Shown here piece after piece: positions 6,787 to 60,401 of a stretch of 60,909 bases of DNA. Every line of letters starts with the position of its first letter. Position 1 is the first letter of the stretch. The DNA is from an uncultured Gammaproteobacteria bacterium. Lineage in GTDB: Bacteria; Patescibacteriota; Patescibacteriia; UBA9934; GWF2-40-263. Under the pieces are notes generated by a model. That model did no database searches and was not told where the DNA came from. It was given only the letters and a program-made list of their open reading frames with translations. The stretch covers positions 1 through 60,909 of the forward strand of contig CAZIDX010000008.1 in NCBI GenBank assembly GCA_964538435.1, read 5' to 3'. A program made the translations under genes and the position numbers.

Positions 6787-6987
6787 AGTGTGTTCCGATA
6801 GGCTAGCCGCGTCTGATGCGGGGGCCCGTCGGGGCTATGGAATTAGTAGAATAACGGGCCAAGCATAGCCAAAACCTCGTTTTCTGTCAATGGCAATAGA
6901 GTTTGGGGCTGGCAGACAAAATTCAAGGAAAACCTCCGTGATCGTGCAAAAATGGCACACAACTTCCCGTACGTGCGAGAAGTTGTG

Positions 6988-7515
6988 TCACTGTTTTTTC
7001 GCAAGGAAAACCTCGACCCACTGTTCTGCTCCTGCACGATTAACAAAATGTTGCACATCTTCAAGAACATTTCTGTCCGATTCCCAAACGCTCATTTGTC
7101 TTTTTCTAAAACCAGCACGTTTGAGAAAGGACCTAAACGCATCCCTTCCTTTGTTGGCAGAAAGAGGGAAGTCATACATCACAATACAGACCTGATTGAA
7201 TGGGAGAAGACTCCTCTCTGCAAGTGTCCGAGAAAGCAGTTCTTTCTCACCTTCCTCGCTCAGTTCTAAGAAAATTCTATTCCTAATCTTCTTCTCTTTC
7301 ACCAAGTTTTTCTTTTTTAGATAAGACAATCGCCTCTGTGAAGTATTTTTGTTAGAGCGCTCACAGAGCATGCTCTTTCGCTGCCGGCCATGACCTGCCC
7401 ACAGAGAAAAAAGATCATCTGTGTCCCGTAAACCATCGGCTAGATATTTAAGAGTCGAGGTGATAATTTCTTTTCCCCGCGAGCTGTGTTGTTTGGAATC
7501 ATCTGTATGTTGCAT
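6988..7515 (-). CDS. wHTH plus Cas2-like (ferredoxin-fold) domain protein, PaaX-like architecture; paralog 1
   Basis: 175 aa. The C-terminal segment VCIVMYDFPLSANKGRDAFRSFLKRAGFRKRQMSVWES matches the Cas2/PaaX-C pattern (V.YDI...R..F...L...GF...Q.SVW). It is a clear paralog of 51303..51812. Confidence 0.6.
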   Translation of the reverse strand: MQHTDDSKQHSSRGKEIITSTLKYLADGLRDTDDLFSLWAGHGRQRKSMLCERSNKNTSQRRLSYLKKKNLVKEKKIRNRIFLELSEEGEKELLSRTLAERSLLPFNQVCIVMYDFPLSANKGRDAFRSFLKRAGFRKRQMSVWESDRNVLEDVQHFVNRAGAEQWVEVFLAKKQ

Positions 7516-7524: not shown

Positions 7525-7538
7525 CTCGTACGTACGAG
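7525..7538. promoter_or_regulatory. Palindrome CTCGTACGTACGAG (variant of the TTCGTA-SS-TACGAA motif), 10 nt upstream of ATG 7515
   Basis: Perfect 14-nt palindrome. It sits at the same position relative to the start codon as 51279-51292 does for paralog 2. Confidence 0.55.
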
Positions 7539-7576
7539 TTTTTGTGTTGTGCCTGGAGGTGCTTTTTCAAATACAA

Positions 7577-7620
7577 AACTCCCCAACACGATCGAATTAG
7601 AATCGCATCAAAGGGGAGTT
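7577..7620 (-). terminator. Terminator-like hairpin in the leader of wHTH-Cas2-like paralog 1
   Basis: On the minus strand: aactcccc-27 nt-ggggagtt followed by ttgtatttg. It lies between the promoter at 7633-7661 and the palindrome/ATG. Confidence 0.45.
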
Positions 7621-7632
7621 GCTTATAGGTTC

Positions 7633-7661
7633 ACTACAGCACCAACCAGCGTCAATGTCAA
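7633..7661 (-). promoter_or_regulatory. Promoter upstream of wHTH-Cas2-like paralog 1
   Basis: On the minus strand: TTGACA (7661-56), 17 nt spacer, TGTAGT (7638-33). Confidence 0.5.
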
Positions 7662-21896: not shown

Positions 21897-21980
21897 CCCA
21901 CAACGCACGTCCCCGCACGTGCAACGAAACACCCAATCGGTGACTCGTTGCTGTGCGGGTGTTTTGTTTCCTTTGAATAC

Positions 21981-22009
21981 TTGACAACCGAGTGAATAAT
22001 GATTAGTTT
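21981..22009 (+). promoter_or_regulatory. Promoter of the 22037..22261 gene
   Basis: TTGACA (21981-86), 17 nt spacer, TAGTTT (22004-09). Confidence 0.5.
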
Positions 22010-22036
22010 AGTAAGCTTGCTCAATGGAGGTGGAAG

Positions 22037-22261
22037 TTGGCAATCCTGTTCACGATTGCGTTCGTGATGCTCGCTGTGGTCGGCTACAAGCTGTCCTGGC
22101 ACATCGGTCTGATCATTCTGTTCTCAGGCCTCTCGTTCGCTTGCCTGATCTTCGCGATCTCCCGCAGGCGCAAGTACTCTGTCCAGATCAGTTGGATGGC
22201 GGAAAACCTCGACGACCTCATCCCAGACTGCGGCGATATCGACATCGACCTCTGGGATTGA
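22037..22261 (+). CDS. Small two-TM membrane protein with acidic C-terminus
   Basis: TTG start is preceded by GGAGGTGG (22026-33). AILFTIAFVMLAVVGY and IGLIILFSGLSFACLIFAI are hydrophobic helices. Confidence 0.45.
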   Translation: MAILFTIAFVMLAVVGYKLSWHIGLIILFSGLSFACLIFAISRRRKYSVQISWMAENLDDLIPDCGDIDIDLWD

Positions 22262-22329
22262 CTCCCTCTGCTGCGCTATGGTTCTCCCTGGCGCTTTTTC
22301 AATTAGAAAAGCGAGTCGGCGTAGACTCG

Positions 22330-23019
22330 CTAAGGGTGGGGAAGACGCGCAGGGGATCCCATGCGACGCCAGGTCGTAAACGGCACACGCACGCGGCAGG
22401 TGCGATCGCGCTGTCTGCACTGCGCAAAGTCAGTGCTTCCAGTCTTTGCAAATGAACACACGCAGGTGGCTTGGCAGATCCCAGGTGGGAGCTGATCAAA
22501 ACTGATCATCTGCATGCCGTGGCGTTGGCCAATGTGAATCGCCTTGATGTTCGTGGTCGTTCCCAGGATATTGGAGTTGCGGTAGCGATCCAGGAACAGG
22601 CGGTAGAGCACGTCCCCAATCGGCATGGAGCGCGCGCTACCGCTCTTGAATCGATACTCACGCACAACCACGTACGTACCGAGCTCGTACCACATCTCGC
22701 CTCGATCGTCTCGCTCAAGCTCCCAAAGGATGATGCAGCCAACCACACAGTTGTGAGATGTACGATCCACCGCGATCACCACGCGCCCATCGTACGCAGC
22801 AGGCTCAAGCTCAGCTCGGGTCTTGGTCAGAAGATGTCTCTCCTCGCGCGTGATGTCTTCGAGCTCGTTATACCAGCTTTCATCGAGGGCGAGCAAGCGC
22901 TCACCCCACAAGTAGTCGATCCCAGGTGTACCCCGACGATCCAGGGCGAATCGAACAGCCGCTCCCAAACGACTGGTGCGGATTGAAGTATTCAGATCAG
23001 TAGCCATCATCCCAAACAT
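22330..23019 (-). CDS. GNAT-fold-like acyltransferase with Cys-rich C-terminus (weak call; GC-rich islet gene)
   Basis: ATG at 23019 has AAGGAGAG upstream. The beta4-alpha3-beta5-like stretch ELGTYVVVREYRF...IGDVLYRLFL...NILGTTTN resembles the GNAT core. The motifs are not canonical. Confidence 0.45.
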   Translation of the reverse strand: MFGMMATDLNTSIRTSRLGAAVRFALDRRGTPGIDYLWGERLLALDESWYNELEDITREERHLLTKTRAELEPAAYDGRVVIAVDRTSHNCVVGCIILWELERDDRGEMWYELGTYVVVREYRFKSGSARSMPIGDVLYRLFLDRYRNSNILGTTTNIKAIHIGQRHGMQMISFDQLPPGICQATCVCSFAKTGSTDFAQCRQRDRTCRVRVPFTTWRRMGSPARLPHP

Positions 23020-23040
23020 CACTCTCTCCTTATGTTTCCA

Positions 23041-23072
23041 TGACTTTTATTCGTACCTACGAACAAAAGTCA
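23041..23072. promoter_or_regulatory. 32-nt near-perfect palindrome containing TTCGTACCTACGAA (candidate operator)
   Basis: tgacttttaTTCGTACCTACGAAcaaaagtca. The core is at 23050-23063. It overlaps the -10/TSS of the minus-strand promoter at 23069-23097. Confidence 0.6.
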
Positions 23073-23097
23073 TAGGTATTTTTGCTTGGTGTGACAA
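23069..23097 (-). promoter_or_regulatory. Candidate promoter of the 22330..23019 gene
   Basis: On the minus strand: TTGTCA (23097-92), 17 nt spacer, TATGAC (23074-69). Confidence 0.45.
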
Positions 23098-23267
23098 ACA
23101 AAAACACCCCGCGAGGAGGTATTTTTGCTTTGCATGAATTTACTCAGGGCATCACAAAACATCTCCCGCAATCGGGGTCTTCTTGCTCTGCTTTTTTGCG
23201 TTTGAGTAATTCATACTGCGCTTAAGATACTTGAAAAATAGCCCTTTGTCAAATATGATGGGCTCAT

Positions 23268-24149
23268 ATGCAAGAAGTCATGTCATCAATCTGGAGAGTT
23301 CAGGGCGAGAACCCAGGACCAACACTCACGATCACTGGAGGAATCCACGGTAATGAAAAAACAGGGATCGAAGTCGTCTCAAACCTGCGCGAAAAGATCA
23401 ACTCAGGCAAGATTAAGATCGTTGCTGGAACACTCTACCTCGCGCACGGCAACCTCGAGGCCATGAAGATCCCAGACCGCGGCACAGAGCCACGCCTAGA
23501 CCTCAATCGAGCATTCCACCTCAACCTACTCGACCGAGAGCCAGACGGAACTTACGAAGATGCTCGGGCTCGTGAGCTTGCACCAATCTTCAAGGAGACG
23601 GATCTGCTCGTTGACCTGCACGCCACCAACAAGCCATCCGAGCCTTTTATTGCTTGTTATAGTATTGACGAGGCTCATCAAGAACTCTATCAGTGGTATC
23701 CATGCAAAAAGATTATGCTTGATCCAGATAGTATTGTGGGTGGAACACCAGTCACAACCGAGGAGTATGTCGAAGACAATGGGGGAATCGGAATCTGTTT
23801 TGAAACCGGACAAGCCGATGATGTGAGTCGTATCGCAGAAGTGGAGGTTATGACCATGAATGTGCTCAAACACTACGGATTCGTTGAGGGTGATCCGCAG
23901 CCTCCAGAGCAAGTTGAGCAAGAAGTCTTCGAGCTCACGCTCCGCATCGACATGACCGAAGCCGGTTGGGGCTACGCAGAAGGTTTTGGAAACAAGTCCT
24001 GGGAACCATTCACAGCAGGGACACAAATCGGAAGACACGGAGACGAGCCACTCATCCCAGATTATGACGGAATGATCGTCTTCCCAAAGATGCCGCGACA
24101 CAGAGTGCTTGGAAAACCCGTTGGATATCTTGCAAAGAAAATTTCATAA
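23268..24149 (+). CDS. Succinylglutamate desuccinylase/aspartoacylase (AstE/AspA, M14-like) family deacylase
   Basis: Zinc-site motifs TGGIHGNEKTG and VDLHAT. 293 aa, backbone GC. Confidence 0.7.
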   Translation: MQEVMSSIWRVQGENPGPTLTITGGIHGNEKTGIEVVSNLREKINSGKIKIVAGTLYLAHGNLEAMKIPDRGTEPRLDLNRAFHLNLLDREPDGTYEDARARELAPIFKETDLLVDLHATNKPSEPFIACYSIDEAHQELYQWYPCKKIMLDPDSIVGGTPVTTEEYVEDNGGIGICFETGQADDVSRIAEVEVMTMNVLKHYGFVEGDPQPPEQVEQEVFELTLRIDMTEAGWGYAEGFGNKSWEPFTAGTQIGRHGDEPLIPDYDGMIVFPKMPRHRVLGKPVGYLAKKIS

Positions 24150-47913: not shown

Positions 47914-48808
47914 AGCAAGACCACGCAAGATGCCAAGCAAACAACTTGAGCGTGCACTCATTGCTCTTCTTGGAATCACACTAGCACTCTTAATCACATT
48001 TTTTTCTTCGCATGGAATCAGGCGATTGGATGATCAGACCATGCAGATCTGGTTCTTTGATGTGGGGCAGGGGGATGCAACGTTTATTGTCACACCAAAC
48101 GGCAAGCAGATTCTCGTTGATGCAGGCCCAAACAAAGGTGTGCTCTCAAAGCTTGGTCAGATCATGCCGTTTTGGGACCGCTCAATTGATGCAATCGTGC
48201 TCACACACCCAGACGCAGACCACATCACAGGTTTTGCTCAGGTGCTTGAACGTTATGAGGTTCACTCTGTGATCGAGTCAGGGCAAGAGGCCACCACAAG
48301 CATTGCTCGTGAAGTGGATCAGGCAATTGAAAACGAAAACGCGCACCACAATCTTGTGAGCGCAGGCGACAGCTTCGTATTCGATGAAGTTCTCTTTGAG
48401 GTTATCTGGCCCAATGCTCTCGAAGAAGGGGAGGTGGTTAAAGATCGAAACGAGCAGTCTGTTGTTTTGCGCGTGACATACGGCGAGACAACGGTGTTGC
48501 TCACAGGAGACATTGAAGAATCAACTGAACTTCAAATCCTTGATGATCTGCGACCTGTTGATGTGCTCAAAGCCGGTCATCACGGATCAGTTACATCAAG
48601 CTCGCCAGAATTTATCTCCGTCACACACCCGCGCGACACCATTATTTCCTGCGGTATAGATAATCGATATGGCCACCCACACCCCATCGTAATTGAGCGC
48701 ATAGAGGGGGTTGAATCAGAGATTTGGCGAACGGACACAGATGGAGACATTCTACTTTCATCAGATGGGGGAGAACCTACATTGCGCGCAGCACCCTTGA
48801 TGTTTTAG
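47900..48808 (+). CDS. comEC: ComEC C-terminal metallo-beta-lactamase domain encoded as a separate overlapping ORF
   Basis: ATG at 47900 overlaps the upstream TAG (47911-13) in a different frame. One TM helix, then FFDVGQGDA, THPDADHITG and KAGHHGS motifs. Confidence 0.75.
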   Translation: MPTHRARPRKMPSKQLERALIALLGITLALLITFFSSHGIRRLDDQTMQIWFFDVGQGDATFIVTPNGKQILVDAGPNKGVLSKLGQIMPFWDRSIDAIVLTHPDADHITGFAQVLERYEVHSVIESGQEATTSIAREVDQAIENENAHHNLVSAGDSFVFDEVLFEVIWPNALEEGEVVKDRNEQSVVLRVTYGETTVLLTGDIEESTELQILDDLRPVDVLKAGHHGSVTSSSPEFISVTHPRDTIISCGIDNRYGHPHPIVIERIEGVESEIWRTDTDGDILLSSDGGEPTLRAAPLMF

Positions 48809-48849
48809 TCTGGCTATGGTATTTTTTGGGCGAAAATAATCACCAAATT

Positions 48850-49317
48850 ATGTCACAGACACAAAAGACCCTTGTCCTTCTCAAGCCAGACGCACTTCAG
48901 CGTGATTTGCTTGGACAGATCGTTGATCGATTCGAGCGAAAAGGAATGAAGATCGTTGGAATGAAGTTTATCCGACTCGACGACAACTTGCTCGACGAGC
49001 ACTACTCCCATCTCTCAGACAAGCCATTCTTCGACTCCCTCAAGCAGTTCATGATGCAAACACCAGTCGTGGGAATGGTGCTCGAAGGATTCGATGCAGT
49101 AGCAGAAGTTCGAAAAGTCGTTGGATCAACCAACCCACGAGAAGCAGATGCTGGAACAATCCGCGCTGACTTCTCAATGAACATGCCATCAAATCTCATC
49201 CACGCCTCAGACTCAGAAGAGACAGCAGCAGCAGAGCTCGAGCGCTTCTTCCTTCCAGAAGAAATCTTCAACTACGAGAAAATCACAGACCGATACATTT
49301 TCGGTGAAGGAGTCTAA
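48850..49317 (+). CDS. ndk: Nucleoside diphosphate kinase
   Basis: ATG at 48850 (MSQTQKTLVLLKPDA). Active-site NLIHASDS. Confidence 0.9.
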   Translation: MSQTQKTLVLLKPDALQRDLLGQIVDRFERKGMKIVGMKFIRLDDNLLDEHYSHLSDKPFFDSLKQFMMQTPVVGMVLEGFDAVAEVRKVVGSTNPREADAGTIRADFSMNMPSNLIHASDSEETAAAELERFFLPEEIFNYEKITDRYIFGEGV

Positions 49318-49442
49318 GTTCAAAAAGAAAACTCGCCCATAACGGACGAGTTTTTGGTTTACCCTTTGACGATCTTGTGATTGTTTGATAGCCTGGGCCA
49401 TGCATTTCGCCACAACGACAACCAGAGGGGTATTCCGCGAAA

Positions 49443-49979
49443 ATGGCATCGACAAGAAAGAAGTTGGAAGACGTCTACTCAGGCCTGTCACCGGCAGCAA
49501 GAGCCTGGCTACTCAACGGCAAGATCACGCTCAAGGACGCTGAGCTCATCACAGAGGAGGAGATGAGTGAGCAAGAAGCCCTCGAGTGGATTCAGCGGTT
49601 CCGGATCAACAAGCGGTGGATCTGGGATCAGTGTGCATGCATCAAGGCGATCACGGACTTGTCCGGGCTCATCGATGATATTCTCGCCTACGAGGCGGTC
49701 AACGCGTTCTCCACAGAACAGTTCCTCATCGGAGATCTCACGCTCGAGCAGATGCGATATGCCTGCCTGAAGATGATGGGGCGCCGCAGTGTGCGCATGT
49801 TCACCCTGCTCAACTACCCAGGCATGGTGCAAGAGCGCCGCAACCTCGCTTACGATGCTCGCCGCAAAGCAGCCAAGCGTCGACCTGTACGTGCCAAGAG
49901 CAGCTCCAGGCAATGGGATCACTTCCTGCGTCACCACCACACCCAGGTTCGGGTGGGAGACACCGCGATCTTCATCTGA
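49443..49979 (+). CDS. Hypothetical 178-aa protein (GC-rich islet gene)
   Basis: Candidate promoter TTGACG-17-TAGCCT (49366-49394). A terminator cccgcaa...ttgcggg follows the stop. I recognise no domain. Confidence 0.45.
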   Translation: MASTRKKLEDVYSGLSPAARAWLLNGKITLKDAELITEEEMSEQEALEWIQRFRINKRWIWDQCACIKAITDLSGLIDDILAYEAVNAFSTEQFLIGDLTLEQMRYACLKMMGRRSVRMFTLLNYPGMVQERRNLAYDARRKAAKRRPVRAKSSSRQWDHFLRHHHTQVRVGDTAIFI

Positions 49980-50036
49980 TCACCGCTCCACGCGCCCGCA
50001 AGCTACGGTTTGCGGGCTTTCTCATCCACAAATTTT

Positions 50037-50065
50037 TTGACAGAAAAAACAATCACTGATAACCT
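50037..50065 (+). promoter_or_regulatory. Promoter of the 50211 GNAT gene (long leader)
   Basis: TTGACA (50037-42), 17 nt spacer, TAACCT (50060-65). Confidence 0.5.
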
Positions 50066-50168
50066 AAATACAGCGTATGACAATGCATTCAAACACATTT
50101 TTCTTTAGCTTCTTCTTCCGCTAAGCGGGGTGTGTTTGTCATAGTCTAAGCGAAACGCTAGAAAGACC

Positions 50169-50196
50169 AACCGCCTCCAAGCGGTTGTTTTGTTTG
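50169..50196 (+). terminator. Terminator-like TCCAA-loop hairpin inside the 5' leader of the GNAT gene (possible attenuator)
   Basis: aaccgc-cTCCAA-gcggtt followed by gttttgtttg. It ends 15 nt before the GTG start at 50211. Confidence 0.45.
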
Positions 50197-50210
50197 TCAC
50201 TGGAGGATAC

Positions 50211-51134
50211 GTGACGCAGCAAGCCATTAGTCTTCTCTCAGAAAAACCAACCATTCGAAACGCGATCCAGACAGATGTGCCAGGAATCAACAAGTTGTTC
50301 ACTGATGAGTACGGCCAAGGGTATCCATACAAGATTCAGGTGCTCGATCCACATACGATCGATGTCGTGGCTGAACTCTTTGGTGAGATCGTGGGATTCG
50401 CGCGCGCTGTGCCCTATGGTCACTACAGCCATGTCTGGGAGCTCGGCGGACTGGTTGTTCGACCTGACTGCCGACGCATGGGGATCGCACGCGCATTCAC
50501 AATCGAGCGCATCCGTCAGTTGAGGCTTCGCGGTGTAAAGACACTCGTTTCCGAATCAGTGGCCTGCTATGAAAACTGTGCTTCCCAGCACAACCTCATC
50601 AAGTTTGGTTTTCGTCCATACGGCATCCTTCCGTTCCAGCACCCCTGGATTCGACCCGAGTACCACGGAGAGCAGCCGCTCTCGCTCGTGCTCATGGTTG
50701 GTGATCTCAATGGTGGAACCAGATTCGGTACACGTAAGGTAAACATGACTAGCTGTGACTACCGAGCTTCCTTGCGTTTTCTCCAACGGACCAAGCTACG
50801 CCCTCCTTGGAGATGGGTGCGGGAAGCAAAGATGCCAGATGTCTTGTATGCTAAGCCAAAGCAAACACATGGAATCACTGGCTCAGCCTTTGTAGACATT
50901 CCCATCAACTGGGAAGCGTCAAGGGAAGTTTCGCGCGACTTGCGCGGACAGGGGTATCGATTCAGCGCGATCTTGCCTGGCTTTGGTCATACCAGCAGGA
51001 GCGAACCCTACGACCTCCTGCGCATGTATAAACCACCCGAGGCCTGCAAGCACGAACATGCATTCGACAAAGTGCATGTATTACCCAAACTCGAGCCGCT
51101 CAAAGCCTTCTGCGCCGCTGAGCTCGTTACCTAA
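50211..51134 (+). CDS. GNAT N-acetyltransferase with a ~150-aa C-terminal extension (GC-rich islet gene)
   Basis: GTG at 50211 is preceded by GGAGGA. Motif A VRPDCRRMGIARAF, then LIKFGFRPYG. Confidence 0.65.
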   Translation: MTQQAISLLSEKPTIRNAIQTDVPGINKLFTDEYGQGYPYKIQVLDPHTIDVVAELFGEIVGFARAVPYGHYSHVWELGGLVVRPDCRRMGIARAFTIERIRQLRLRGVKTLVSESVACYENCASQHNLIKFGFRPYGILPFQHPWIRPEYHGEQPLSLVLMVGDLNGGTRFGTRKVNMTSCDYRASLRFLQRTKLRPPWRWVREAKMPDVLYAKPKQTHGITGSAFVDIPINWEASREVSRDLRGQGYRFSAILPGFGHTSRSEPYDLLRMYKPPEACKHEHAFDKVHVLPKLEPLKAFCAAELVT

Positions 51135-51170
51135 GAGGTCCACGCAAGACCTCTTTTTCTATTTCATGGG

Positions 51171-51199
51171 TTGACACAATTGCATACGCATGCTGCAAT
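51171..51199 (+). promoter_or_regulatory. Promoter upstream of wHTH-Cas2-like paralog 2
   Basis: TTGACA (51171-76), 17 nt spacer, TGCAAT (51194-99). Confidence 0.5.
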
Positions 51200-51222
51200 A
51201 AAGACACAAATAACTCTCTCCT

Positions 51223-51262
51223 CCCCGTGCGCGTCCACAAAACCGCAGGGGTTTTTGTTTTT
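51223..51262 (+). terminator. Terminator-like hairpin in the leader of paralog 2
   Basis: ccccgtgcg / cgcagggg (one bulge) followed by tttttgttttt. It lies between the promoter and the palindrome/ATG. Confidence 0.45.
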
Positions 51263-51278
51263 AAATATGTAATAAAAG

Positions 51279-51292
51279 TTCGTACCTACGAA
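51279..51292. promoter_or_regulatory. Palindrome TTCGTACCTACGAA (candidate operator), 11 nt upstream of ATG 51303
   Basis: Arms TTCGTA/TACGAA. The same 14-mer occurs at 23050-23063. An inverted near-copy lies at 51818-51831. Confidence 0.6.
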
Positions 51293-51302
51293 AAAGAATT
51301 GT

Positions 51303-51812
51303 ATGCCAAGACAAAAAGGAAAAGGTGAGAATCTCATAACCTCCACTCTAGAATTTCTTAGCAATGGTGCTTGTGAAGCAAATCACTTGTTTGATTTGTG
51401 GACAGGGGACTCCAGAACAAGGAAAAGTATGGGGTGTGAAAAAACCTATCAAAGCAAAAAAGCCAGACTCAGGTATTTAAAAGAGAAAAAACTTATCGCT
51501 GTTAAAAAGAAAGAAGATAAAGTGATTGTTGAGCTGACAAAAAAAGGTGACAGAGAAAGAAAAAAACGCAGAAAAAATAAAGCAAGCAAACTACCTGTCA
51601 ATCAGGTGTGTTTAGTCACCTATGATATTCCTACTACTGCAAATAAGGCCAGAGATGCTTTTCGGTTCTTTTTGAAAAAACTTGGTTTCAAGAAAATAAA
51701 CCAGAGTGTCTGGCAGACAGAGTTTAATGTCATCGATGAGGTTCTGGGTTTTGTAAGGAAGGCAAAGATAGGTGAGTGGGTGTGTGTCTTTGTCGCAGCA
51801 AAAACAGGGTAA
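51303..51812 (+). CDS. wHTH plus Cas2-like (ferredoxin-fold) domain protein, PaaX-like architecture; paralog 2
   Basis: 169 aa. VCLVTYDIPTTANKARDAFRFFLKKLGFKKINQSVWQT. It aligns along its full length with 6988..7515. Confidence 0.6.
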   Translation: MPRQKGKGENLITSTLEFLSNGACEANHLFDLWTGDSRTRKSMGCEKTYQSKKARLRYLKEKKLIAVKKKEDKVIVELTKKGDRERKKRRKNKASKLPVNQVCLVTYDIPTTANKARDAFRFFLKKLGFKKINQSVWQTEFNVIDEVLGFVRKAKIGEWVCVFVAAKTG

Positions 51813-51817
51813 TTCTT

Positions 51818-51831
51818 TTTCGTAGGTGCGA
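51818..51831. promoter_or_regulatory. Palindrome variant TTCGTAGGTGCGAA just 3' of paralog 2
   Basis: 51810-51831 aattctttttcgtaggtgcgaa is the reverse complement of 51279-51300 with one mismatch, so the gene is bracketed by 22-nt inverted repeats. Confidence 0.55.
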
Positions 51832-51984
51832 ACAGGAATCACGATATTCAAAACACGCACTACAGCTGGATACATATGTTGTTCAGTGGAACAAGTATTG
51901 AGAAGAGCATTCCTGTATTTTTTGTTGTGGAAAGTGCTGTGTAAAAACCGTGGATGAACAGGGGACTACTCACCCTTGAAAAAC

Positions 51985-52012
51985 TTGATTCGAAATGTCA
52001 GAATGGTATATT
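51985..52012 (+). promoter_or_regulatory. Promoter of the 52018-52298 transcript
   Basis: TTGATT (51985-90), 16 nt spacer, TATATT (52007-12). Confidence 0.5.
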
Positions 52013-52017
52013 TAATT

Positions 52018-52298
52018 ATGCCTTACGGTCGAGTGGGTGTGTTCCACCTACAACAATCTAAACCTGGCCTGGGAATGCGCGGCTTCGGCAACGCAATAAG
52101 GCCAACCCGGTTCATCCGACTGATGTGGACGACATGGTGGATTCGACAAGCTGCCATCATCGCTACAGTGCCGGATAGATGCGTGCTCGAGAGGACTGCA
52201 AACAGGAGTACTCGTCAGACCGAACATGAACCCGTAATCATTGGGCCGCCCACTTCCCCGTTAGGCGCTAAAAGCCACCCAGCATTGGGTGGTTTTTC
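52018..52298 (+). ncRNA. Candidate structured ncRNA (~280 nt, GC-rich) between its own promoter and terminator
   Basis: Hand-found helices are 52031-39/52247-55, 52065-69/52100-04, 52076-79/52092-95 with a UUCG-capped tip, 52109-15/52226-32 and 52134-40/52154-60. The terminator is ccaccca-gcat-tgggtgg+ttttt (52275-97). The only ORF runs through the terminator and the next promoter. Confidence 0.4.
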
Positions 52299-52303
52299 AT
52301 TGA

Positions 52304-52332
52304 TTGACAATTTGGGTTATTTTTCCTAATCT
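52304..52332 (+). promoter_or_regulatory. Promoter of the 52367 gene
   Basis: TTGACA (52304-09), 17 nt spacer, TAATCT (52327-32). It is similar in sequence to the promoter at 53853. Confidence 0.6.
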
Positions 52333-52366
52333 AACCCTCTGCTCTTTCCAAGACGGAGATCTGTAC

Positions 52367-53356
52367 ATGACGTACAAACATAACTGCACAGGCTGCGGCA
52401 AATGCAAGCTCGAAGTTGAGTTGCCTCAGAGGGTCAGGAAGATTCTAGGTGACAATACAGCGATCGCAGAACCGTTCTTCATCAACGATCCAACGGACAT
52501 GGGTGCGCTCAAAGACGCATTTGTGCAGAGGGTGGGCGGTGAAGGTCCGATGATTGATGCTGTTGCATATGCAAATGCCGTGATGCGTCTTTCCTTGAAT
52601 GTGAAACGTGGTGCCCTCGAAGTCATGATGACTCACTACCAAGAGATGAGTAATCGAATGGTGGAGATTTGGGGATCGCACGAAAGCAGTGTTCGAGCCC
52701 TGATGGCTGCTGAAAAAGCTGGTATCTGTTTTGCGACCTACGAAGAAACCATTGAGATGTTTCGCATGGTCGTTTCTGTGCTTGAGAAAACTCACAGCTT
52801 TGAGCCTGCTGAGGACGAAACAGAAGAGCAGCAGCTTGTGGAATTGTGGGAGGTCATTGCGTGGCGCTTCGGAAAGTGCTTCGGTGCTGATAAGTACCTT
52901 GAGCGTGAAGAACTCCCGCCTTCAATGCAAGTCCCTACATTTGCTCCTGCGTTCTGCATCTCAATGCTCATGCAGCTAGGTGCCAACTCTGCACTCGATG
53001 TCATGTTGCGCAGAGCAGGCGAGGTGAATGAAGCCGAACGCGATCAGGTGTGTGTCGAGGATTTCTGGGCAGTCGTTGCAGCTCTCTCGAGCCGGAGTGT
53101 CACACTCGAAGAGTTCAAGAAACTCATCGAAATATCTGGGGTGTGGAAGTTTGTTGCGCTAGGACCGCTCGCACAATCGCGTGTGGTAAATGCGCACGTG
53201 TTCAGGCAATTAATAAACAATCCTCAGATCATCCAGGACCGCAGTGCTAATGAGATTGTCTCGCTCCTAAACGACTGGCACCAAGTTCGTCGCCGTGTCC
53301 GTCTCAATGAGTTTGCTCAGCGTTGGGGAAGCCTCGATGCTTACACAGCCTGGTGA
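52367..53356 (+). CDS. Hypothetical 329-aa protein, homologous to the N-terminal two-thirds of 53910..55322
   Basis: ATG at 52367 lies after GGAGA and downstream of the promoter. N-terminal CTGCGKCK. Alignable blocks with the fused paralog include DFWAVVAAL.../DIWLAVRAAH... and EIVSLLNDWHQ/EIMNLTEQWHS. Confidence 0.5.
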   Translation: MTYKHNCTGCGKCKLEVELPQRVRKILGDNTAIAEPFFINDPTDMGALKDAFVQRVGGEGPMIDAVAYANAVMRLSLNVKRGALEVMMTHYQEMSNRMVEIWGSHESSVRALMAAEKAGICFATYEETIEMFRMVVSVLEKTHSFEPAEDETEEQQLVELWEVIAWRFGKCFGADKYLEREELPPSMQVPTFAPAFCISMLMQLGANSALDVMLRRAGEVNEAERDQVCVEDFWAVVAALSSRSVTLEEFKKLIEISGVWKFVALGPLAQSRVVNAHVFRQLINNPQIIQDRSANEIVSLLNDWHQVRRRVRLNEFAQRWGSLDAYTAW

Positions 53357-53362
53357 GCGTTC

Positions 53363-53827
53363 ATGCGAGCAAGCAAGAAACCCAAGAAGCCTCCTCTCAC
53401 CCCGAGCGTCGTCCAAGCACCCGTGTCATCCAAGCCTGCACCAGAACCCGAACTCGAGGAAACCAAGCTTGCCCCCGATGGAATCGACTGGGACTGGGTC
53501 ATGGCCGAGCTCATGGTTGAGGATCAAGTTCCTGATCTGGACCCACGACTCGTGCGCATCACGATTGTGCACGGCCTGCTCCGCCAGGGTGATCGCATGT
53601 CCTCCATGGACCGACTACCCACACGGAGCCGTAGGCGATTCTGGAAAGAGTGTCGAGGCGCTGGAGTCAATCGCTCAAAGCTCGAAGCCGTTCGCGACCA
53701 GCTCAAGACACGTGGACTCATCAAGCTCAAGGCAGGAAAGTACTCCCTCGCCAGTCAGCTGAGTGTTGCCGACGAACTCCACATCCTTCACGACCGCATC
53801 CGAGAACTCTCGGAGCGCTACGTATAG
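53363..53827 (+). CDS. Hypothetical 154-aa protein (Pro/Lys-rich linker plus winged-helix-like domain), homologous to the C-terminal third of 53910..55322
   Basis: It is in the same frame as 52367..53356, separated only by TGA plus 2 codons. GIDWDWVMAE...LDPRLVRITIVHGLLRQGDRM...FWKECRG...GLIKLKAGKYSLA matches GLDWDWVMAE...LDPCIVRVIIVHGMLRSGDRV...LWKECEG...GLIERKKGKYSLA. Confidence 0.5.
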   Translation: MRASKKPKKPPLTPSVVQAPVSSKPAPEPELEETKLAPDGIDWDWVMAELMVEDQVPDLDPRLVRITIVHGLLRQGDRMSSMDRLPTRSRRRFWKECRGAGVNRSKLEAVRDQLKTRGLIKLKAGKYSLASQLSVADELHILHDRIRELSERYV

Positions 53828-53828
53828 A

Positions 53829-53849
53829 CCCACCAAATGGTGGGTTTTT
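53829..53849 (+). terminator. Intrinsic terminator after 53363..53827
   Basis: cccacc-aaat-ggtggg followed by ttttt. Confidence 0.65.
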
Positions 53850-53852
53850 CTG

Positions 53853-53881
53853 TTGACAAATGGGGGATTTTTGACTAATGT
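53853..53881 (+). promoter_or_regulatory. Promoter of the 53910 gene
   Basis: TTGACA (53853-58), 17 nt spacer, TAATGT (53876-81). Confidence 0.6.
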
Positions 53882-53909
53882 GATTTCTGCTCTTTTAATT
53901 GGGAGGAAC

Positions 53910-55322
53910 ATGCGAGTCATCATGAAGCTCGTGAATCAAATAGAGGTTACGTACCCAATCGTTCCCAACTCCAACCACCTGCGAGACCAGGAATTCATCA
54001 AGGAAGCACTCATCCAAGTCTGTTGTGAAAGCGAGCCCCCAGTTTGGGTCGAAATGTGGTTCCCGATCGCTATGGTCCGCCACTATCTGGAGCAAAACCC
54101 CATCAGGGTCAAGCAGGCCAACGATATCTTGTCCAAGATCATTCTGGATCACACAAAGATCTGGGGTGGAGCCTCACACGAAGCTCTTGGTGCGCTTGCG
54201 ATTGCAGAGGCCGTAGGGCTTCAGTTCGATTCCCATCGCGAGACCATGCAAGCGTTCACGCGCATACTCAAGGTCATCAACCGGAATAAAAAGTGGGACC
54301 ACTCAACGATCGCACTTTGGAAACGTGCAATCAGTGCAATGACTTCACGGGCCACGCCCGGCGGACAAGACTTCACTGAGTTGTATGACCGGCTAGAGGT
54401 TCCACCCTGGCTTCCTGGCTATTGCCTGGATCTGCTCTGTCAACTCGATGTAGACGACCCAACAGGCGTGAAGCACGTCTCATTCGATGATGGCACCACA
54501 GTTGTCAAAATGGACATTGGAGCTCCAGACATCTGGCTTGCTGTAAGGGCGGCACATGAACTCACACTCGGTGAAGTGCAGATCAGACGCTTCATCAAGG
54601 AGCATGGGCTTGTTAGGTTCATCTGGCTTGGTATGTGTTATAGCGAGAAGCTGATCAATCGATCGGCGTTCCTTCGCATGACCGCAAAACCAAGCCTCAT
54701 CAAAAACCTCTCCATGATCGAGATTATGAATTTAACAGAGCAGTGGCACAGTGCTGGGTGTCCTGATCTCGACAAGTTCATCAAGGTCGGGGGGACAGTC
54801 GAAAGCTTCGAGAGGCATCAGCAAGCTGAGCAAGAGCGACAGGCAGAGATACAAAGGCAGAAGCGTCGCAAACCTCAGCCCAAGCCCGAGCCAAGGGCGG
54901 CAGCGCCAGTCTACGTTGCTCCCAAACCCGAGCCTAAGCCAGAACCTGCCGCACTTGTTCCCGAAGGACTTGATTGGGACTGGGTCATGGCTGAGTTCAC
55001 TGGAGTCGAGGAGGTTTTCCCAAATCTGGATCCATGCATTGTGCGCGTGATCATCGTGCACGGAATGCTCAGGTCTGGAGACCGAGTCATGCCCATGGGA
55101 AGGCTTCCATCCAAGAAACTTCCAAAGCTCTGGAAAGAGTGCGAGGGTCCGCTGTGCTCGGACAAAGGGCAGTTCACAGGCGCACTCGAGCATCTCCGCA
55201 GAAGCGGCCTGATCGAACGCAAGAAAGGGAAGTACTCCCTGGCGCGAGCTCATCCACGCAACAAAGAGATGCATCCCATCCTCGAGCAGATCGAAGCGGT
55301 CTGCCAGAGGTACGCATCCTGA
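53910..55322 (+). CDS. Hypothetical 470-aa protein, the fused paralog of the 52367 and 53363 pair
   Basis: ATG at 53910 is preceded by GGGAGGA. It is colinear with the two upstream ORFs, including a Pro/Lys/Glu-rich linker (KPQPKPEPRAAAPVYVAPKPEPKPEP). Confidence 0.55.
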   Translation: MRVIMKLVNQIEVTYPIVPNSNHLRDQEFIKEALIQVCCESEPPVWVEMWFPIAMVRHYLEQNPIRVKQANDILSKIILDHTKIWGGASHEALGALAIAEAVGLQFDSHRETMQAFTRILKVINRNKKWDHSTIALWKRAISAMTSRATPGGQDFTELYDRLEVPPWLPGYCLDLLCQLDVDDPTGVKHVSFDDGTTVVKMDIGAPDIWLAVRAAHELTLGEVQIRRFIKEHGLVRFIWLGMCYSEKLINRSAFLRMTAKPSLIKNLSMIEIMNLTEQWHSAGCPDLDKFIKVGGTVESFERHQQAEQERQAEIQRQKRRKPQPKPEPRAAAPVYVAPKPEPKPEPAALVPEGLDWDWVMAEFTGVEEVFPNLDPCIVRVIIVHGMLRSGDRVMPMGRLPSKKLPKLWKECEGPLCSDKGQFTGALEHLRRSGLIERKKGKYSLARAHPRNKEMHPILEQIEAVCQRYAS

Positions 55323-57174: not shown

Positions 57175-57209
57175 GAAGGGGATTTCTATTTGTGCTATTA
57201 TCTATCCAT

Positions 57210-57647
57210 ATGCGAGCAGTCATCCAACGCGTCAAAGAATCCTCTGTCACCGTTGATGGGGAAGTGGTCGGAAAAATCGATCAGGGCCTTCTGGTTCTTC
57301 TTGCCATCCACAAAGACGATAACGAGGCCATGATTGAAAAAATGGCGCACAAAATTTCGCACCTACGAATTTTTGTTGACGATCAAGATAAGATGAGTCG
57401 CTCAGTCCAGAACGTGGCCGGCAGCGTGCTTGTGATCTCCCAGTTCACACTCTATGGCGACGTTCGCAAGGGAAACCGCCCAGGATTCACAGATTCAGCT
57501 CACCCTGACAAAGCAAAGCCTTACTACGAAAAAGTCGTGGACAAGATCCGTGCTCAAGGCCTGAAAGTAGAAACAGGAACATTCGCTGCTATGATGGATG
57601 TGTCACTTACAAACGATGGGCCAGTAACAATAATCGTTGATCTATAA
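57210..57647 (+). CDS. dtd: D-aminoacyl-tRNA deacylase
   Basis: ATG at 57210 (MRAVIQRV). SQFTLYGD and NDGPVT motifs. 145 aa. Confidence 0.9.
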
Positions 57648-57657: not shown

Positions 57658-57679
57658 CTTTTTCGTAGGTACGAAAAAG
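57658..57679. promoter_or_regulatory. 22-nt palindrome ctttttcgtaGGtacgaaaaag containing TTCGTAGGTACGAA
   Basis: Perfect 10-nt arms. It is the fifth copy of the TTCGTA-SS-TACGAA motif and lies between the convergent dtd and 57729 genes. Confidence 0.55.
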
Positions 57680-57728: not shown

Positions 57729-58253
57729 TTACGCATCATCGAGCGAGTTGTGCGTAGTGGGTTGCTCTGCAAATTCGATTTCCTCTCCGGTCGTGAGGTC
57801 AACGAACACGAGAACGCCACCGCGCTTTGGCTTCAGTGCGATCCAGTTGTCACCAATGCGTAGCATCTGTGCTGTGCGCTTGAAGTGCACCTCGAGCGTT
57901 GCATTGATCTGTCCGTGACTGACTCTTGTCGACCCAACGAGCAGGTCCCACCCTCGAATCATAGCGAGGCGAGGCGGATTGCCCTTCACAGCACCGCACT
58001 TGGGGCAGAACGGTAGCGTGGCTCCATCCCTCTCGTGATACGAGTTCCTGCACGGCTCGTGGATATGAATCCTCATGTCCGTCATCGTCAGTGCAGCCAG
58101 CCTCAGATGGACCGTGCCACGGAATCCATCACTGCCATAGCTGGTCTTGCCAGTCTTCCCCATGGTGATAGCACCATCAGCGTTTCGAACAATGGTCCAG
58201 GTCGGCGCCATCGAGTATCCCTTCTCGTCCTTGACGGGCTCTTCAAGCGACAT
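57729..58253 (-). CDS. Hypothetical protein with a zinc-ribbon-like CxxxxH...CPKC motif (GC-rich islet gene); start uncertain
   Basis: 174-aa ORF. ATG 58253 lies inside the -10 (TAATGT) of a TTGACA-17 promoter (58250-58278), so the internal ATG at 58211 (MAPTWTIV) is an alternative start. Confidence 0.45.
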   Translation of the reverse strand: MSLEEPVKDEKGYSMAPTWTIVRNADGAITMGKTGKTSYGSDGFRGTVHLRLAALTMTDMRIHIHEPCRNSYHERDGATLPFCPKCGAVKGNPPRLAMIRGWDLLVGSTRVSHGQINATLEVHFKRTAQMLRIGDNWIALKPKRGGVLVFVDLTTGEEIEFAEQPTTHNSLDDA

Positions 58254-58328
58254 TACGCAAGTAAGTCCTCTATGTCAACCAATAAGAAAACCCGCACCTC
58301 CGTAGAGGGCGGGTGTTTTCGTTTCGGC

Positions 58329-59177
58329 CTAGTCGCCGAAGTGGTTGAACCCTTCGCGCTCGAACCGAGGCATGGGCGCACGCTTGTGACGCGTCGAGCG
58401 CATCAGCTGCAAGAACCGATCGCGCTTGCCATGCGGGTCGTCCATGGCCATGACTGCCTTCTCACCGCCAGCAGCGAACGCGCGCGCGAACGCATCCAGG
58501 GTCGAGTAGGACATCTCCAGGTCGGCCTCGTCACTCTGCCGGTTGCCGTCCGCGTCCTCGCCTTCGAGGTCCGCGCTCGGCACCTTGTCGATGATCCACT
58601 GCGGAGCGTTGAGCATGCGCAAGATGGACCAGACGTCCTCCTTGACGAACTGCACCAGCGGACCGAAGTCGCCATCCGCATCGCCGCCACCCTTGGTGTC
58701 GTAGCCCACGATGGTCTCGGACCAGTTGCAGGTGTTGATGAACAGGTAGCCGTTCACCTCGGCCCAGAGACGTCCCAGAGTCGTGCGCAGACGCGCCTTG
58801 ACATTGCCTTCGGCGATCTTCTTCCTCTTGTCCGAGAGCGCTTCCCAGCCATTGGTGCCCTCGATGTCGGCTTCGAGCATGAAGGTCGCGAACGTACGAT
58901 CGAGCTCGCGATCGGCGCATCGCACGCCAGCCCACTCGCAGAGTCGGTGAGCATCGGTCTTGGCGTAGTCAGCCGATCCGATCGGGATCGTGAGTGCCAG
59001 AACGCGCTCCGGGCCCAGAGCCTTGACCAGAAGACCCAGAGCAGCGGCGCTGTCAGCACCTCCACTCTTGTTGAGCAAGACACCCTTGGCGCCGGTGCTG
59101 TCCACAAACTCGCGGATCCACTCGATCTGCGCGAGCATCTCGTCGTAGGTGACGGGTTTGAGCATAGGGACGGTCAT
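58329..59177 (-). CDS. nadE: NH3-dependent NAD+ synthetase-like PP-loop ATPase
   Basis: ATG at 59177 is preceded by AAGGAG. PP-loop LNKSGGADSAAA and the NadE-like C-terminal ...STRHKRAPMP. Confidence 0.7.
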   Translation of the reverse strand: MTVPMLKPVTYDEMLAQIEWIREFVDSTGAKGVLLNKSGGADSAAALGLLVKALGPERVLALTIPIGSADYAKTDAHRLCEWAGVRCADRELDRTFATFMLEADIEGTNGWEALSDKRKKIAEGNVKARLRTTLGRLWAEVNGYLFINTCNWSETIVGYDTKGGGDADGDFGPLVQFVKEDVWSILRMLNAPQWIIDKVPSADLEGEDADGNRQSDEADLEMSYSTLDAFARAFAAGGEKAVMAMDDPHGKRDRFLQLMRSTRHKRAPMPRFEREGFNHFGD

Positions 59178-59297
59178 GATGACTCTCCTTACAGTCGATT
59201 GAGAGGGTTGGGTTTCCCACGAGCTCCGCATCAAAACGATGGGGCTCTCATGGAAACCCCCGACTCTAGCGCGCGTGGCTAGGGTCGGGGAAGGGGG

Positions 59298-60401
59298 TTA
59301 CTCGAGTCCTGCGAGCATGGTATCCAGCAGGAACTCCACCGTGGCCTCAGGGTGCATGACCTGGTGGCTCTCCTTGGTCTGGCCGATGACCAGGACGCGG
59401 TAGCCGTCGTCCTTACCGACCTTGACCCGCACCGGAGCGAAGTGCTCCTCACGGACGGCCTTGATGGCGGTCTGGTCGTACAGGTTGAAGACCAGGATGT
59501 GATCCCAGATCCGGTCGTCGCCGTTCAGGTGCGCGATGTTGTCGTGACCACCGCAGAACACGTTGCCGAACCAGGTGGAATCTCCCACCTTGCCCGGGAA
59601 GCAGGGGAGGCCTTCTCGACCTTCCTTGTCGTCAGCCGGCAGGTTGCACCGGTACCAGAGGTGCTGGATCAGGGCTTCCTGCATGGCCTGCAGACGGATA
59701 CCCACCGGGTGACCCGTGTCAGCGAACTCGTCGTAGCAGTCGCGCGGGCTGGCCGCGGCATACGCCGCCCACTTGCTGGTGATGGCCAGCGGGATGCCCA
59801 GGGTCTGCAGGACGTGGAACGCGTAGATGGACGCACCTTCATCGTGCTTGTTGTTCACAGCAGCGAACCAGGGCTTGAGCAGGCCGTTCTCGTCGAAGAC
59901 GAAGTTGCCGTGCTCGTCCACCTCAGCGCCACCCATCATGGACACGCCACGCAGCTTGCGCTGGAGCAGGTTCAGGTAGTAGGGCTTGCCCTCGGCCTCG
60001 CGCAGGTACTGAGCGATGTCGCTCATGCCACCAGCCGCCACGAACACCACGCTGTGGTTCGGGGACTCCTCGAGGATCTGCCAGAACAGGTCGCTGCCCT
60101 TGGGGAAGTCCATTTCCGCGCTGATGTACGGGACATCGAACTGGATGTGCTCGTTGGTCTGCCGACCACCGAAGTTCTTGCCAATGGCCACCGGGACATG
60201 GCTCAAACCGAGCTCATCCAGAGTGCCACGAGCCACACGTGCGCGCATCTCCACCGGGTTGCGGTGAACGATCACGCCACCGATCTTGATCTGACCGTGA
60301 CTCCTCATCCCAGCGAGCATGACCAGGCTGCCTTCTTCGTCCGGATCGTTGCCGGTCTCGCCGTTGAAGATGATGATCGGGGCATTGGGATCTCGAATCA
60401 T
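59298..60401 (-). CDS. Nucleoside hydrolase-like (IUNH-fold) protein, divergent
   Basis: AAGGAG SD. The N-terminal acidic cluster NGETGNDPDEEGSLVMLA resembles DxDxxxDD. AAVNNKHDEGASIYAFHVLQTLGIP resembles the (E)FNi..DPeAA..V motif. Confidence 0.5.
   Translation of the reverse strand: MIRDPNAPIIIFNGETGNDPDEEGSLVMLAGMRSHGQIKIGGVIVHRNPVEMRARVARGTLDELGLSHVPVAIGKNFGGRQTNEHIQFDVPYISAEMDFPKGSDLFWQILEESPNHSVVFVAAGGMSDIAQYLREAEGKPYYLNLLQRKLRGVSMMGGAEVDEHGNFVFDENGLLKPWFAAVNNKHDEGASIYAFHVLQTLGIPLAITSKWAAYAAASPRDCYDEFADTGHPVGIRLQAMQEALIQHLWYRCNLPADDKEGREGLPCFPGKVGDSTWFGNVFCGGHDNIAHLNGDDRIWDHILVFNLYDQTAIKAVREEHFAPVRVKVGKDDGYRVLVIGQTKESHQVMHPEATVEFLLDTMLAGLE

Follow-up and report, generated by a model that had tools for sequence, protein, structure and literature searches.

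PaaX represses its own promoter and binds the inverted repeat TGATTC-N27-GAATCA; its middle part is described as a dimerisation motif, and its C-terminal domain is said to bind the inducer phenylacetyl-CoA (PMC9493321). The PaaX proteins of E. coli and Pseudomonas (PDB 8a39, 3l09) begin with a winged helix followed by the domain PF20803. The winged-helix proteins PadR and AspA bind palindromic DNA as dimers, PadR dimerising by its C-terminal helices rather than by a ferredoxin-like domain. The repetitive extragenic palindromic (REP) sequences and their RAYT genes offer the example of a single-copy, vertically inherited gene that is flanked on both sides by a palindrome its product recognises, with inverted doublets elsewhere. 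Loop-forming repressors act through separated operators: lambda CI at OL and OR, which flank the cI region, and Gal, Lac and Deo at paired operators tens to hundreds of bp apart. Here we describe two paralogous genes, paralog 1 (P1, 6988..7515) and paralog 2 (P2, 51303..51812), in a 61-kb contig from a seawater metagenome (CAZIDX010000008.1; "the window" means the whole of this contig). Each encodes what appears to be a half-size PaaX and is enclosed by palindromes of its own type. Gene content (NDK, ComEC, S1, dtd) and the nearest relatives of the protein place the window among the Candidate Phyla Radiation (CPR)/Patescibacteria, near Candidatus Uhrbacteria; many of its open reading frames (ORFs) are without a Pfam match.

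Paralog 2 and its flanking palindromes are laid out as follows.

51303..51812, plus strand: paralog 2, intact, ATG start, 169 aa; winged helix (about residues 7-78), linker helix, Cas2-like beta-alpha-beta-beta-alpha-beta domain (101-166)
51269..51302: 5' site, core TTCGTACCTACGAA at 51279-51292, extended as GTAATAA-AAG-core-AAA-GAATTGT, ending 1 nt before the ATG
51279-51300: 5' inverted-repeat arm, ttcgtacctacgaaaaagaatt, 22 nt
51811-51832: 3' inverted-repeat arm, reverse complement of ttcgtacctacgaaaaagaatt with one mismatch, overlapping the last two bases of the TAA stop
51809..51842: 3' site, core TTCGTAGGTGCGAA at 51819-51832, imperfect 34-nt palindrome GTAATTC-TTT-core-CAG-GAATCAC

The original prediction had recognised the 169-aa ORF and an ATG without a Shine-Dalgarno (SD) sequence, and indeed no SD-like purine run is present in the 10 nt before this ATG. 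It had also recognised the 22-nt inverted repeats, of which the 5' arm and the single mismatch hold, but the 3' arm has to be moved from 51810-51831 to 51811-51832; the TAA stop sits in the left arm of the 3' site.

Residues 103-167 of the protein match Pfam PaaX_M (PF20803, "central Cas2-like domain"; E 2.4e-11, 44 bits against a cut-off of 24). The AlphaFold model, built on 44 relatives (predicted local distance difference test, pLDDT, 89), consists of three helices and a beta-wing, the linker helix and then a ferredoxin-like domain, with no helices beyond. Foldseek ranks E. coli PaaX (8a39; E 2.5e-4, 168 columns) first over the whole length, that is, over both domains; the C-terminal half resembles Cas2 chains and the N-terminal half the winged helices of PadR, LmrR and AspA, with probabilities of ~1.0 for residues ~7-93 against PadR, LmrR and the pNOB8 centromere-binding AspA. 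Neither the PaaX N-terminal-domain model nor PaaX_C is among the Pfam matches at E <= 1, and Pfam gives no match to PadR; the protein stops at residue 169, directly after the Cas2-like domain. The winged helix and Cas2-like fold that had been read from the sequence are therefore borne out by Pfam, AlphaFold and Foldseek, but the domain matched is the middle one, PaaX_M, and not PaaX_C. Because of the PaaX_M match, the winged-helix/Cas2-like model and the Foldseek ranking of PaaX, we regard paralog 2 as a "mini-PaaX", on the model a half-size PaaX (169 aa against ~305 aa) without the C-terminal helical domain. Mini-PaaX belongs to the PaaX_M superfamily but lacks two features that define PaaX, the C-terminal domain and the paa context: no paa genes are found among the scanned neighbour proteins (NDK, an unknown, GNAT, unknowns, AstE-like, GNAT, dtd).

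The likeness to Cas2, a homodimer, extends to a common fold and to the signature motif. The family motif (Y/F)D(I/V)P...R..FR..L...GF...Q.SVW parallels the Cas2 pattern YDI...R...L..G....Q.SVF, and D108, P110, R117, R121 and S135, at positions common with the Cas2 signature, are invariant in 44 members; no HxH motif is found among the residues invariant in these members. Cas2 models match paralog 2 weakly (E ~1e-5 to 1e-4; profile against PDB, Cas2 E 6e-4): TIGR01573 gives 22.1 bits against a trusted cut-off of 24.5, with model positions 3-42 of 96 matched. Unlike Cas2, the domain is fused to a winged helix in a stand-alone gene that is widespread in CPR genomes.

Relatives came from an exhaustive profile search, which gave 1524 representatives (E <= 1e-3), nearly all of 150-240 aa; a word-indexed homolog search for paralog 2 returned the query itself only, and the metagenomes of the Joint Genome Institute (JGI), queried with a single protein, returned no relative. 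The named relatives are "hypothetical" or "PaaX-like central Cas2-like domain-containing" proteins from Uhrbacteria, and literature searches (PaaX+Cas2, PF20803, PaaX-like+CPR) found nothing on a mini-PaaX family. Thirteen members were fetched through the protein: the two window paralogs and the loci L001, L003, L004, L127, L129, L131 and L138-L142, where L-numbers denote loci of relatives and L004 is GCA_900089805, a related genome with the paralog-2 ortholog. Three further members, L006, L007 and L154, were found by DNA-pattern scans.

Self-bracketing with palindromes that co-vary with the protein appears, from the comparison of these loci, to be a family-wide trait, and it is the new element here. 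Matching palindromes stand 5' and 3' of the gene in 12 of the 13 protein-fetched members, both window paralogs counted; the sole exception, L138, has the 5' palindrome alone. Outside the window the brackets are:

L001: TTCGTATGTACGAA and TTCGTACCTACGAA
L003: TCACCATGGTAA and TCACCATGGTGA
L004: TTCGTACCTACGAA twice
L127: 34-nt palindrome around TTCCGACGATCGTCGGAA
L129: 36-nt palindrome around TTCGCGGGTGTGAA
L131: TTCACGATCGTGAA
L139, L140 (40 nt), L141 and L142: bracketed too

The two copies around one gene match each other, and the cores vary between proteins, a distinct core going with each (TTCGTA..TACGAA, CTCGTA..TACGAG, TTCGCATATGCGAA, TTCACGATCGTGAA, TTCCGACGATCGTCGGAA, TCACCATGGTGA, TTGACGRYCGTCAA and others). 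The palindrome lies 5-37 nt ahead of the start codon in every relative and ends 1-13 nt before the ATG in most; all 15 aligned family genes keep it in front of the start codon, and it is from the position of the 5' copy that we take the ATG at 10076 as the true start in L003. The distance from site to site ranges from 527 to 573 bp across members, which is the length of the gene, with no helical-phase constraint visible.

The same pairing was recovered when the protein was ignored. When 596 Gb of genomes were scanned, blind to the protein, for paired TTCGYANNTRCGAA copies at a distance of 526-556 bp, two of the four matches enclosed a family gene (L006, Saccharibacteria; L007, Uhrbacteria), and L154, likewise from a DNA scan, is a third family gene enclosed by paired palindromes. 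As a control, an exact 11-mer common to the 5' and 3' zones was found in 8 of 10 family ORFs and in 10 of 482 other ORFs of the same loci (Fisher p 2e-11). In the scan for doublets (58-85 nt gap) TTCGCA..TGCGAA repeats from unrelated bacteria predominated, and L148 and L154 were its only yield. At L148 (7253-7362, in a Saccharibacteria metagenome-assembled genome) two TTCGCATATGCGAA copies lie 96 nt apart, each in a perfect 40-42-nt palindrome; their 13-nt outer arms are unrelated (GACTAATAAT... and CTTGCTTACAATT...), complementarity being kept and sequence not.

L001 and L131 share their gene order, with a tRNA upstream and a cation ATPase, translin and a Mur ligase downstream, yet their cores differ, which argues that the protein and both sites diverged in place. 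In L001, L003, L006, L007, L127, L129 and L131 (~95 kb) the cognate core is present at the two bracket positions and nowhere else. As a separate observation, the family gene of the Uhrbacteria-like loci L001 (5780-7268) and L131 (1-3566) lies between a tRNA gene and the gene of the P-type cation ATPase, and the 3' palindrome of L131 is directly ahead of the ATPase start; this layout hints that the ATPase of L131 may be a target of the family protein.

Paralog 1 has sites of its own.

6988..7515, minus strand: paralog 1, 175 aa, 44.6% identity to paralog 2 (tblastn E 3e-42)
7525..7538: 5' site, CTCGTACGTACGAG, 9 nt upstream of the paralog-1 ATG
6956..6989: 3' site, with the imperfect core CCCGTACGTGCGAG at 6966-6979, just past the stop, in the 34-nt palindrome cacacaactt...aagttgtgtg
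7569..7661, minus strand: leader of paralog 1, TTGACA 7661-7656, 17-nt spacer, TGTAGT 7638-7633, hairpin CTCCCC...GGGGAG with TTTTGTATTT at 7618-7569

It too matches PaaX_M (E 1.4e-10, 41.5 bits against a cut-off of 24). The core of paralog 2 is TTCGTA-SS-TACGAA and that of paralog 1 is CTCGTA-CG-TACGAG; paralog 1 is thus bracketed like paralog 2 by a variant of its own, and 7525-7538, which had been counted as a fifth copy of a single motif, is instead its cognate site. On the gene strand the 3' site runs into ccaTTTTTg, and the terminator scan lists it with 13 pairs and the tail GCCATTTTTG; it plausibly doubles as a terminator hairpin. The leader hairpin (-20.4 kcal/mol, z -4.3) is also listed by the terminator scan.

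Sites of the paralog-2 type are few. Allowing at most one mismatch, TTCGTANNTACGAA occurs in the window at 23050, 51279, 51819 (one mismatch), 57356 (one mismatch) and 57662; against these five copies 0.05 are expected by chance, and none of 100 shuffles reached five. That a 14-mer recurs here far beyond chance had been seen correctly, although the copy at 57356 was missed. Copies were also counted in four metagenome runs, X1-X4. Sites 23050 and 57662 have no further copy in these runs, and over seven loci and X1-X4 the palindrome is low-copy, not frequent irrespective of context. The three sites beyond the bracket are these.

23040..23073: paralog-2-type site, 34-nt palindrome ATGACTTTTA-TTCGTACCTACGAA-CAAAAGTCAT
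57356..57369: paralog-2-type site, TTCGCACCTACGAA, one mismatch, inside the dtd coding sequence, 306 bp from the 57662 site
57658..57679: paralog-2-type site, perfect 22-nt palindrome CTTTTTCGTAGGTACGAAAAAG, between convergent dtd (57192..57647, plus) and 57729..58253 (minus)

The first of them precedes the opening GTG of ORF 22330..23022 (minus) by 17 nt and lies in the divergent region common to this ORF and the AstE-like gene 23268..24149. Downstream of the opening GTG the ORF has an AAGGAG SD and an in-frame ATG, and it is preceded by a minus-strand promoter, TTGACA-17-TATCTT (23252-23224; 10/12), and by leader hairpins, a layout analogous to the leader of paralog 2. The 57356 site, of a type absent from the dtd of L004, may be functional or may be chance. 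Copies beyond the bracket are confined to the window's clade (the three above, L004 15673 and 15758, and one in L137). A scan for TGAC-N5-core gave five matches, with L137 the sole one in CPR; the exact core is therefore confined to a narrow clade. The genome-contig scan with the 16-mer TTCGTACCTACGAAAA included, among the matches listed, chance matches in unrelated taxa.

Among the neighbours of these sites, 57729-58253 (minus) and L004 15078-15512 encode a Zn-ribbon-like protein of 144-174 aa (71% identity, CxxC...CxxC, no Pfam match), and the two AstE-like proteins near sites are weak paralogs (28% identity). A common regulon theme of GNAT and AstE-like pairs near sites was left as speculation, ORF 22330..23022 having no detectable family.

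Upstream of the 5' site of paralog 2 lie the following signals.

51133..51165, plus strand: terminator of the upstream GNAT gene (50190..51134), 8-pair stem then TTTTCTATTTC, from the terminator scan
51171..51199, plus strand: sigma-70-like promoter, TTGACA 51171-51176, 17-nt spacer, TGCAAT 51194-51199
51223..51262, plus strand: leader hairpin and T-tract, CCCC at 51223 to GGGG at 51251, then TTTTTGTTTTT at 51252-51262; -12.8 kcal/mol

The original prediction was right about this promoter and terminator-like leader, which are present and are conserved in P1, L003 and L004. The promoter element CAATAAAGACACAAA is identical in the window and L004, and TTGAC(A/G)-17-T(G/C)(C/T)A(A/G)T, with a spacer of exactly 17 nt, also precedes paralog 1, L003 and L004; the promoter at 51171..51199 was not listed by the scan because its -10 hexamer has no A at position 2. 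Hairpins with the same CCCC/GGGG base, differing inner stems and a U-tract are found at paralog 1, L003, L004 and L007 and upstream of site 23050, each folded singly and not from an alignment. P2, P1, L003 and L004 have one order in common: upstream-gene terminator, promoter, ~17-23 nt, hairpin, U-tract, site, ATG, and L007 carries the leader hairpin too. The promoter-terminator leader is therefore real, and it is conserved in the window's clade. An equivalent of the 51133..51165 hairpin is present at the ortholog locus L004, and this terminator would insulate the regulator gene against read-through. We also considered roadblock-assisted termination at the leader terminator and dropped it: U-tract and site are anywhere from 16 to ~90 nt apart, which is too variable for a fixed roadblock geometry to be likely. 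As an independent observation, the 5' arms of the leader hairpins read CCUCCCC or CUCCCC, the anti-SD of 16S rRNA (window 51220-51226, 7618-7613 and 23100-23115; L003, L004), and the 3' arms are accordingly SD-like (GGGG, GAGGG or GGGGAG).

On balance we think it probable, though far from assured, that paralog 2 is an autoregulated, sequence-specific repressor of the PaaX/PadR type whose cognate operators bracket its own gene. Of the alternatives first put forward, an autoregulated repressor with a small regulon is the one that the sequences favour, because of the truncated-PaaX architecture, the site before the start codon, the co-variation of site and protein, and the low copy number. Dimers would form through the Cas2-like domain, as they do in Cas2 and PaaX, and this domain may also sense a ligand; the dimers would bind double-stranded DNA at the core TTCG(T/C)A-NN-T(A/G)CGAA at both ends of the gene. 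A dimer on the 5' site would block initiation or elongation from the TTGACA-17-TGCAAT promoter, giving negative autoregulation, and the leader terminator would keep expression low beneath it. The 3' site would most likely cooperate with the 5' site through a ~540-bp loop between two dimers; it may also block transcription into or out of the gene, with the longer arms acting as a transcript-end hairpin or insulator. Paralog 1 would act likewise through CTCGTA-CG-TACGAG. Further targets of paralog 2 may be the 23050 site before 22330..23022, the best candidate, and the sites near dtd. The comparison establishes the fold, the sites and their conservation, the co-variation of sites with protein and the low copy number; binding, repression, looping and a likely effector are what we infer.

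By analogy, then, mini-PaaX would work most like the PadR/PaaX autorepressors. In the 3' site of paralog 2 the outer arms, TAATTC...GAATCA, are similar to the TGATTC/GAATCA half-sites of PaaX, but the family operators have a 14-bp core, with outer arms that are optional and 20 bp apart in place of N27, and stand on both sides of the gene. The arrangement recalls lambda cI in placing a repressor gene between two operators, and differs in that the distance between them is the length of the gene.

Several observations weigh against an autorepressor. A 3' operator is unusual for one, and the role given to it above is a guess; the 3' site of paralog 1 resembles an ordinary terminator. The 5' site in the window's clade lies ~80 nt downstream of the sole convincing promoter and past a terminator, so that repression there would need a roadblock. 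The extra sites are at positions that are not conserved between the window and L004; for the homologous Zn-ribbon-like gene they are downstream in the window and upstream in L004, and the sampling of the regulon reached 10 kb around each gene only. Finally, many sites are near-perfect palindromes of 30-42 nt whose outer arms vary yet stay self-complementary, as between the two L148 sites or between window 23050 and the 3' site of paralog 1, and arms of this kind speak for a hairpin or cruciform and not for base-specific contacts. Our own reading is composite: the core would be a sequence-specific duplex operator, to which the arms may add a transcript hairpin or favour extrusion.

Were the palindromes read as RNA, the protein, a winged helix joined to a Cas2 fold that is like an RNA recognition motif (RRM), would bind transcript hairpins and control its own translation, termination or mRNA stability, the 5' hairpin standing in place of the missing SD and the 3' hairpin at the transcript end. 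Cas2 proteins were first described as endoribonucleases, and the names of the PDB matches agree. The closeness of the 5' site to the ATG in most members, the absence of an SD from 14 of 15 family genes, the varying but complementary outer arms and the scoring of the P1 3' site as an intrinsic terminator all point the same way, as does the upstream position of the sole convincing promoter in the window's clade, by which the site would be transcribed. We nevertheless consider regulation at the RNA level rather unlikely. The missing SD also fits short or absent leaders, and the 5' palindrome overlaps -35/-10-like hexamers in L006, L127, L131 and L139; in L006 the palindrome covers the -35 position of a TATAAT that is 7 nt upstream of the ATG, and with -10-like hexamers downstream of or inside the palindrome (L006, L127, L131) part of the site would stay outside the transcript. 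Where a copy is imperfect, the mismatch on the mRNA strand is in most cases A.C and not a G.U wobble (L129 3', L007 3', P1 3', 57356), and the two sites of L129 carry one asymmetric 25-nt sequence in opposite orientations. The central dinucleotide, the would-be loop, is CC, GG, TG or CG on that strand, in either orientation relative to the gene and hence not conserved, and a 6-bp core with a 2-nt centre folds as 5 bp and a tetraloop only, which is weak.

That the palindromes instead form the ends, or the recognition hairpins, of a minimal mobile cassette, selfish or domesticated, and that the protein acts on them through a Cas2-like nuclease domain in the manner of RAYT genes flanked by REP sequences or of an autonomous element with its miniature inverted-repeat transposable elements (MITEs), is by our estimate decidedly unlikely, for all that the bracketing by cognate palindromes throughout the family (12/13 members) is what that explanation, and the REP/RAYT likeness, would lead one to expect. 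The Asp, Arg and Ser common with Cas2 and invariant in 44 members, and the non-conserved positions of the extra sites, would also suit it. A further point for it is a gene-less doublet at another locus of the source metagenome (X1, X2, X4), where a 5'-type site, 50 nt and a 3'-type site follow one another in the order seen around paralog 2, between unrelated flanks (CAAACCCAAACGTAATTCTT before, CCATAGACTGACATGCGAG after). The 3'-type site is identical over 36 nt in X2 and X4 and the 5'-type site over 24 nt in X1; the contigs measure 6444 (X1), 978 (X2) and 1095 nt (X4), with a depth of 42.8 in X1 against 17 for the window contig. The doublet of L004 at 15673/15758, 85 nt from start to start, has the same spacing. 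This gene-less doublet may be a paired operator at another promoter, or it may derive from a cassette and lack its gene; paralog 1 has no doublet copy elsewhere in the metagenome runs. Family genes are lower in G+C than their loci (38% against 51% in the window), but the low G+C tracks their Lys/Arg-rich composition (K+R make up 19-25% of the family proteins). Window 48013-51789 is collinear with L004 at 72% identity (NDK, 175-aa ORF, GNAT, leader, gene) and collinearity resumes past the 3' site; the ortholog in GCA_900089805 has the same NDK / 175-aa / GNAT ... AstE / GNAT / dtd neighbourhood and the repeat-bounded unit is syntenic rather than at variable loci; L001 and L131 remain syntenic in spite of their diverged cores. 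Flank asymmetry has a direct orientation in four members (L001, L003, L004, L007) and an inverted one in the window and in L129, a mixture that terminal inverted repeats would not be expected to show. Unlike insertion sequences and MITEs, the bracket shows no clear target-site duplication at the ends of paralog 2, and no excision joint was found in the cognate contigs. Where REP/RAYT systems have tens to hundreds of dispersed repeats, each genome sample here has a single copy of each type, without expansion in the four metagenomes, and searches against Pfam, NCBIfam, PADLOC and PHROGs gave no transposase, HUH/Y1 (IS200-like) or recombinase domain. The suggestion of a recently mobile cassette is thus mostly contradicted by synteny and by the mixed orientation of the flanks, with the one gene-less doublet as a caveat. 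It is similarly improbable that a hairpin- or cruciform-recognising winged helix with an active Cas2-like domain cuts, protects or recombines the palindromes and seeds gene-less doublets; if it did, the gene and its two palindromes would be a self-contained unit of a new kind, RAYT-like with an unrelated fold. Very improbable, finally, is a Cas2-derived toxin or a remnant of CRISPR (clustered regularly interspaced short palindromic repeats) adaptation under attenuation control. The weak Cas2 matches, the conserved Asp that closes strand 1 and the terminator in the leader could be so understood, but the score is below the TIGR01573 cut-off and the alignments to the Cas2 models cover only their first ~40 residues. 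As in PaaX, whose middle part is described as a dimerisation motif (PMC9493321), a DNA-binding winged helix is joined to the Cas2-like domain. No antitoxin-like or other partner gene is inside the bracket in the ORF list, and there is no sign of regulated termination, which leaves the nuclease or toxin first suggested unsupported. No CRISPR-like array was found in the window by Tandem Repeats Finder (TRF), as originally stated, with cas genes not searched exhaustively and the whole window not scanned for cas1; no cas domains are found among the genes precomputed around the 13 relatives.

Other features of the window stand apart from these questions. The interval 51937-52300, between the 3' site of paralog 2 and the next gene, has 88% identity over 361 nt to L004 10609-10969, the coding DNA beside it having ~72% identity to L004. 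It contains promoter-like hexamers (51976-52012) and ends in a plus-strand terminator (CCACCCAgcatTGGGTGG then TTTTT), with no Rfam match even at E <= 1 and no tmRNA by ARAGORN, and is a candidate RNA of ~285 nt. At 52304-55322, the ORFs 52304..53356 and 53363..53827 resemble a split copy of the 519-aa ORF 53763..55322, to which their identity is 22% along the body and 45% in the C-terminal part (the segment GLDWDWVMAE...KGKYSLA); none of these ORFs has a Pfam domain, and the L004 counterpart is a single 485-aa gene. Window 19823-19913 holds 6.5 copies of the 14-nt tandem repeat CAAAGTCTGACTTC (92% matches), ~130 nt from tRNA-Lys. G+C reaches 57-63% in blocks at 8000-10000, 18000-23000 and 58000-60000 and is 45-52% in the rest of the contig.

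CPR/Patescibacteria have very few recognisable transcription factors, and their gene regulation is almost unknown. Mini-PaaX proteins and their palindromes form protein-site pairs that can be read from sequence, and would thus be a natural set for learning the winged-helix recognition code; regulons of uncultivated bacteria might be predicted with their help, and orthogonal repressor-operator pairs drawn from them. A conserved second site at the 3' end of a regulator gene is not textbook, and looping, insulation or a selfish origin may explain it. The family is also a case of the Cas2 fold used on its own, away from CRISPR, in a form that stands between Cas2 and PaaX.

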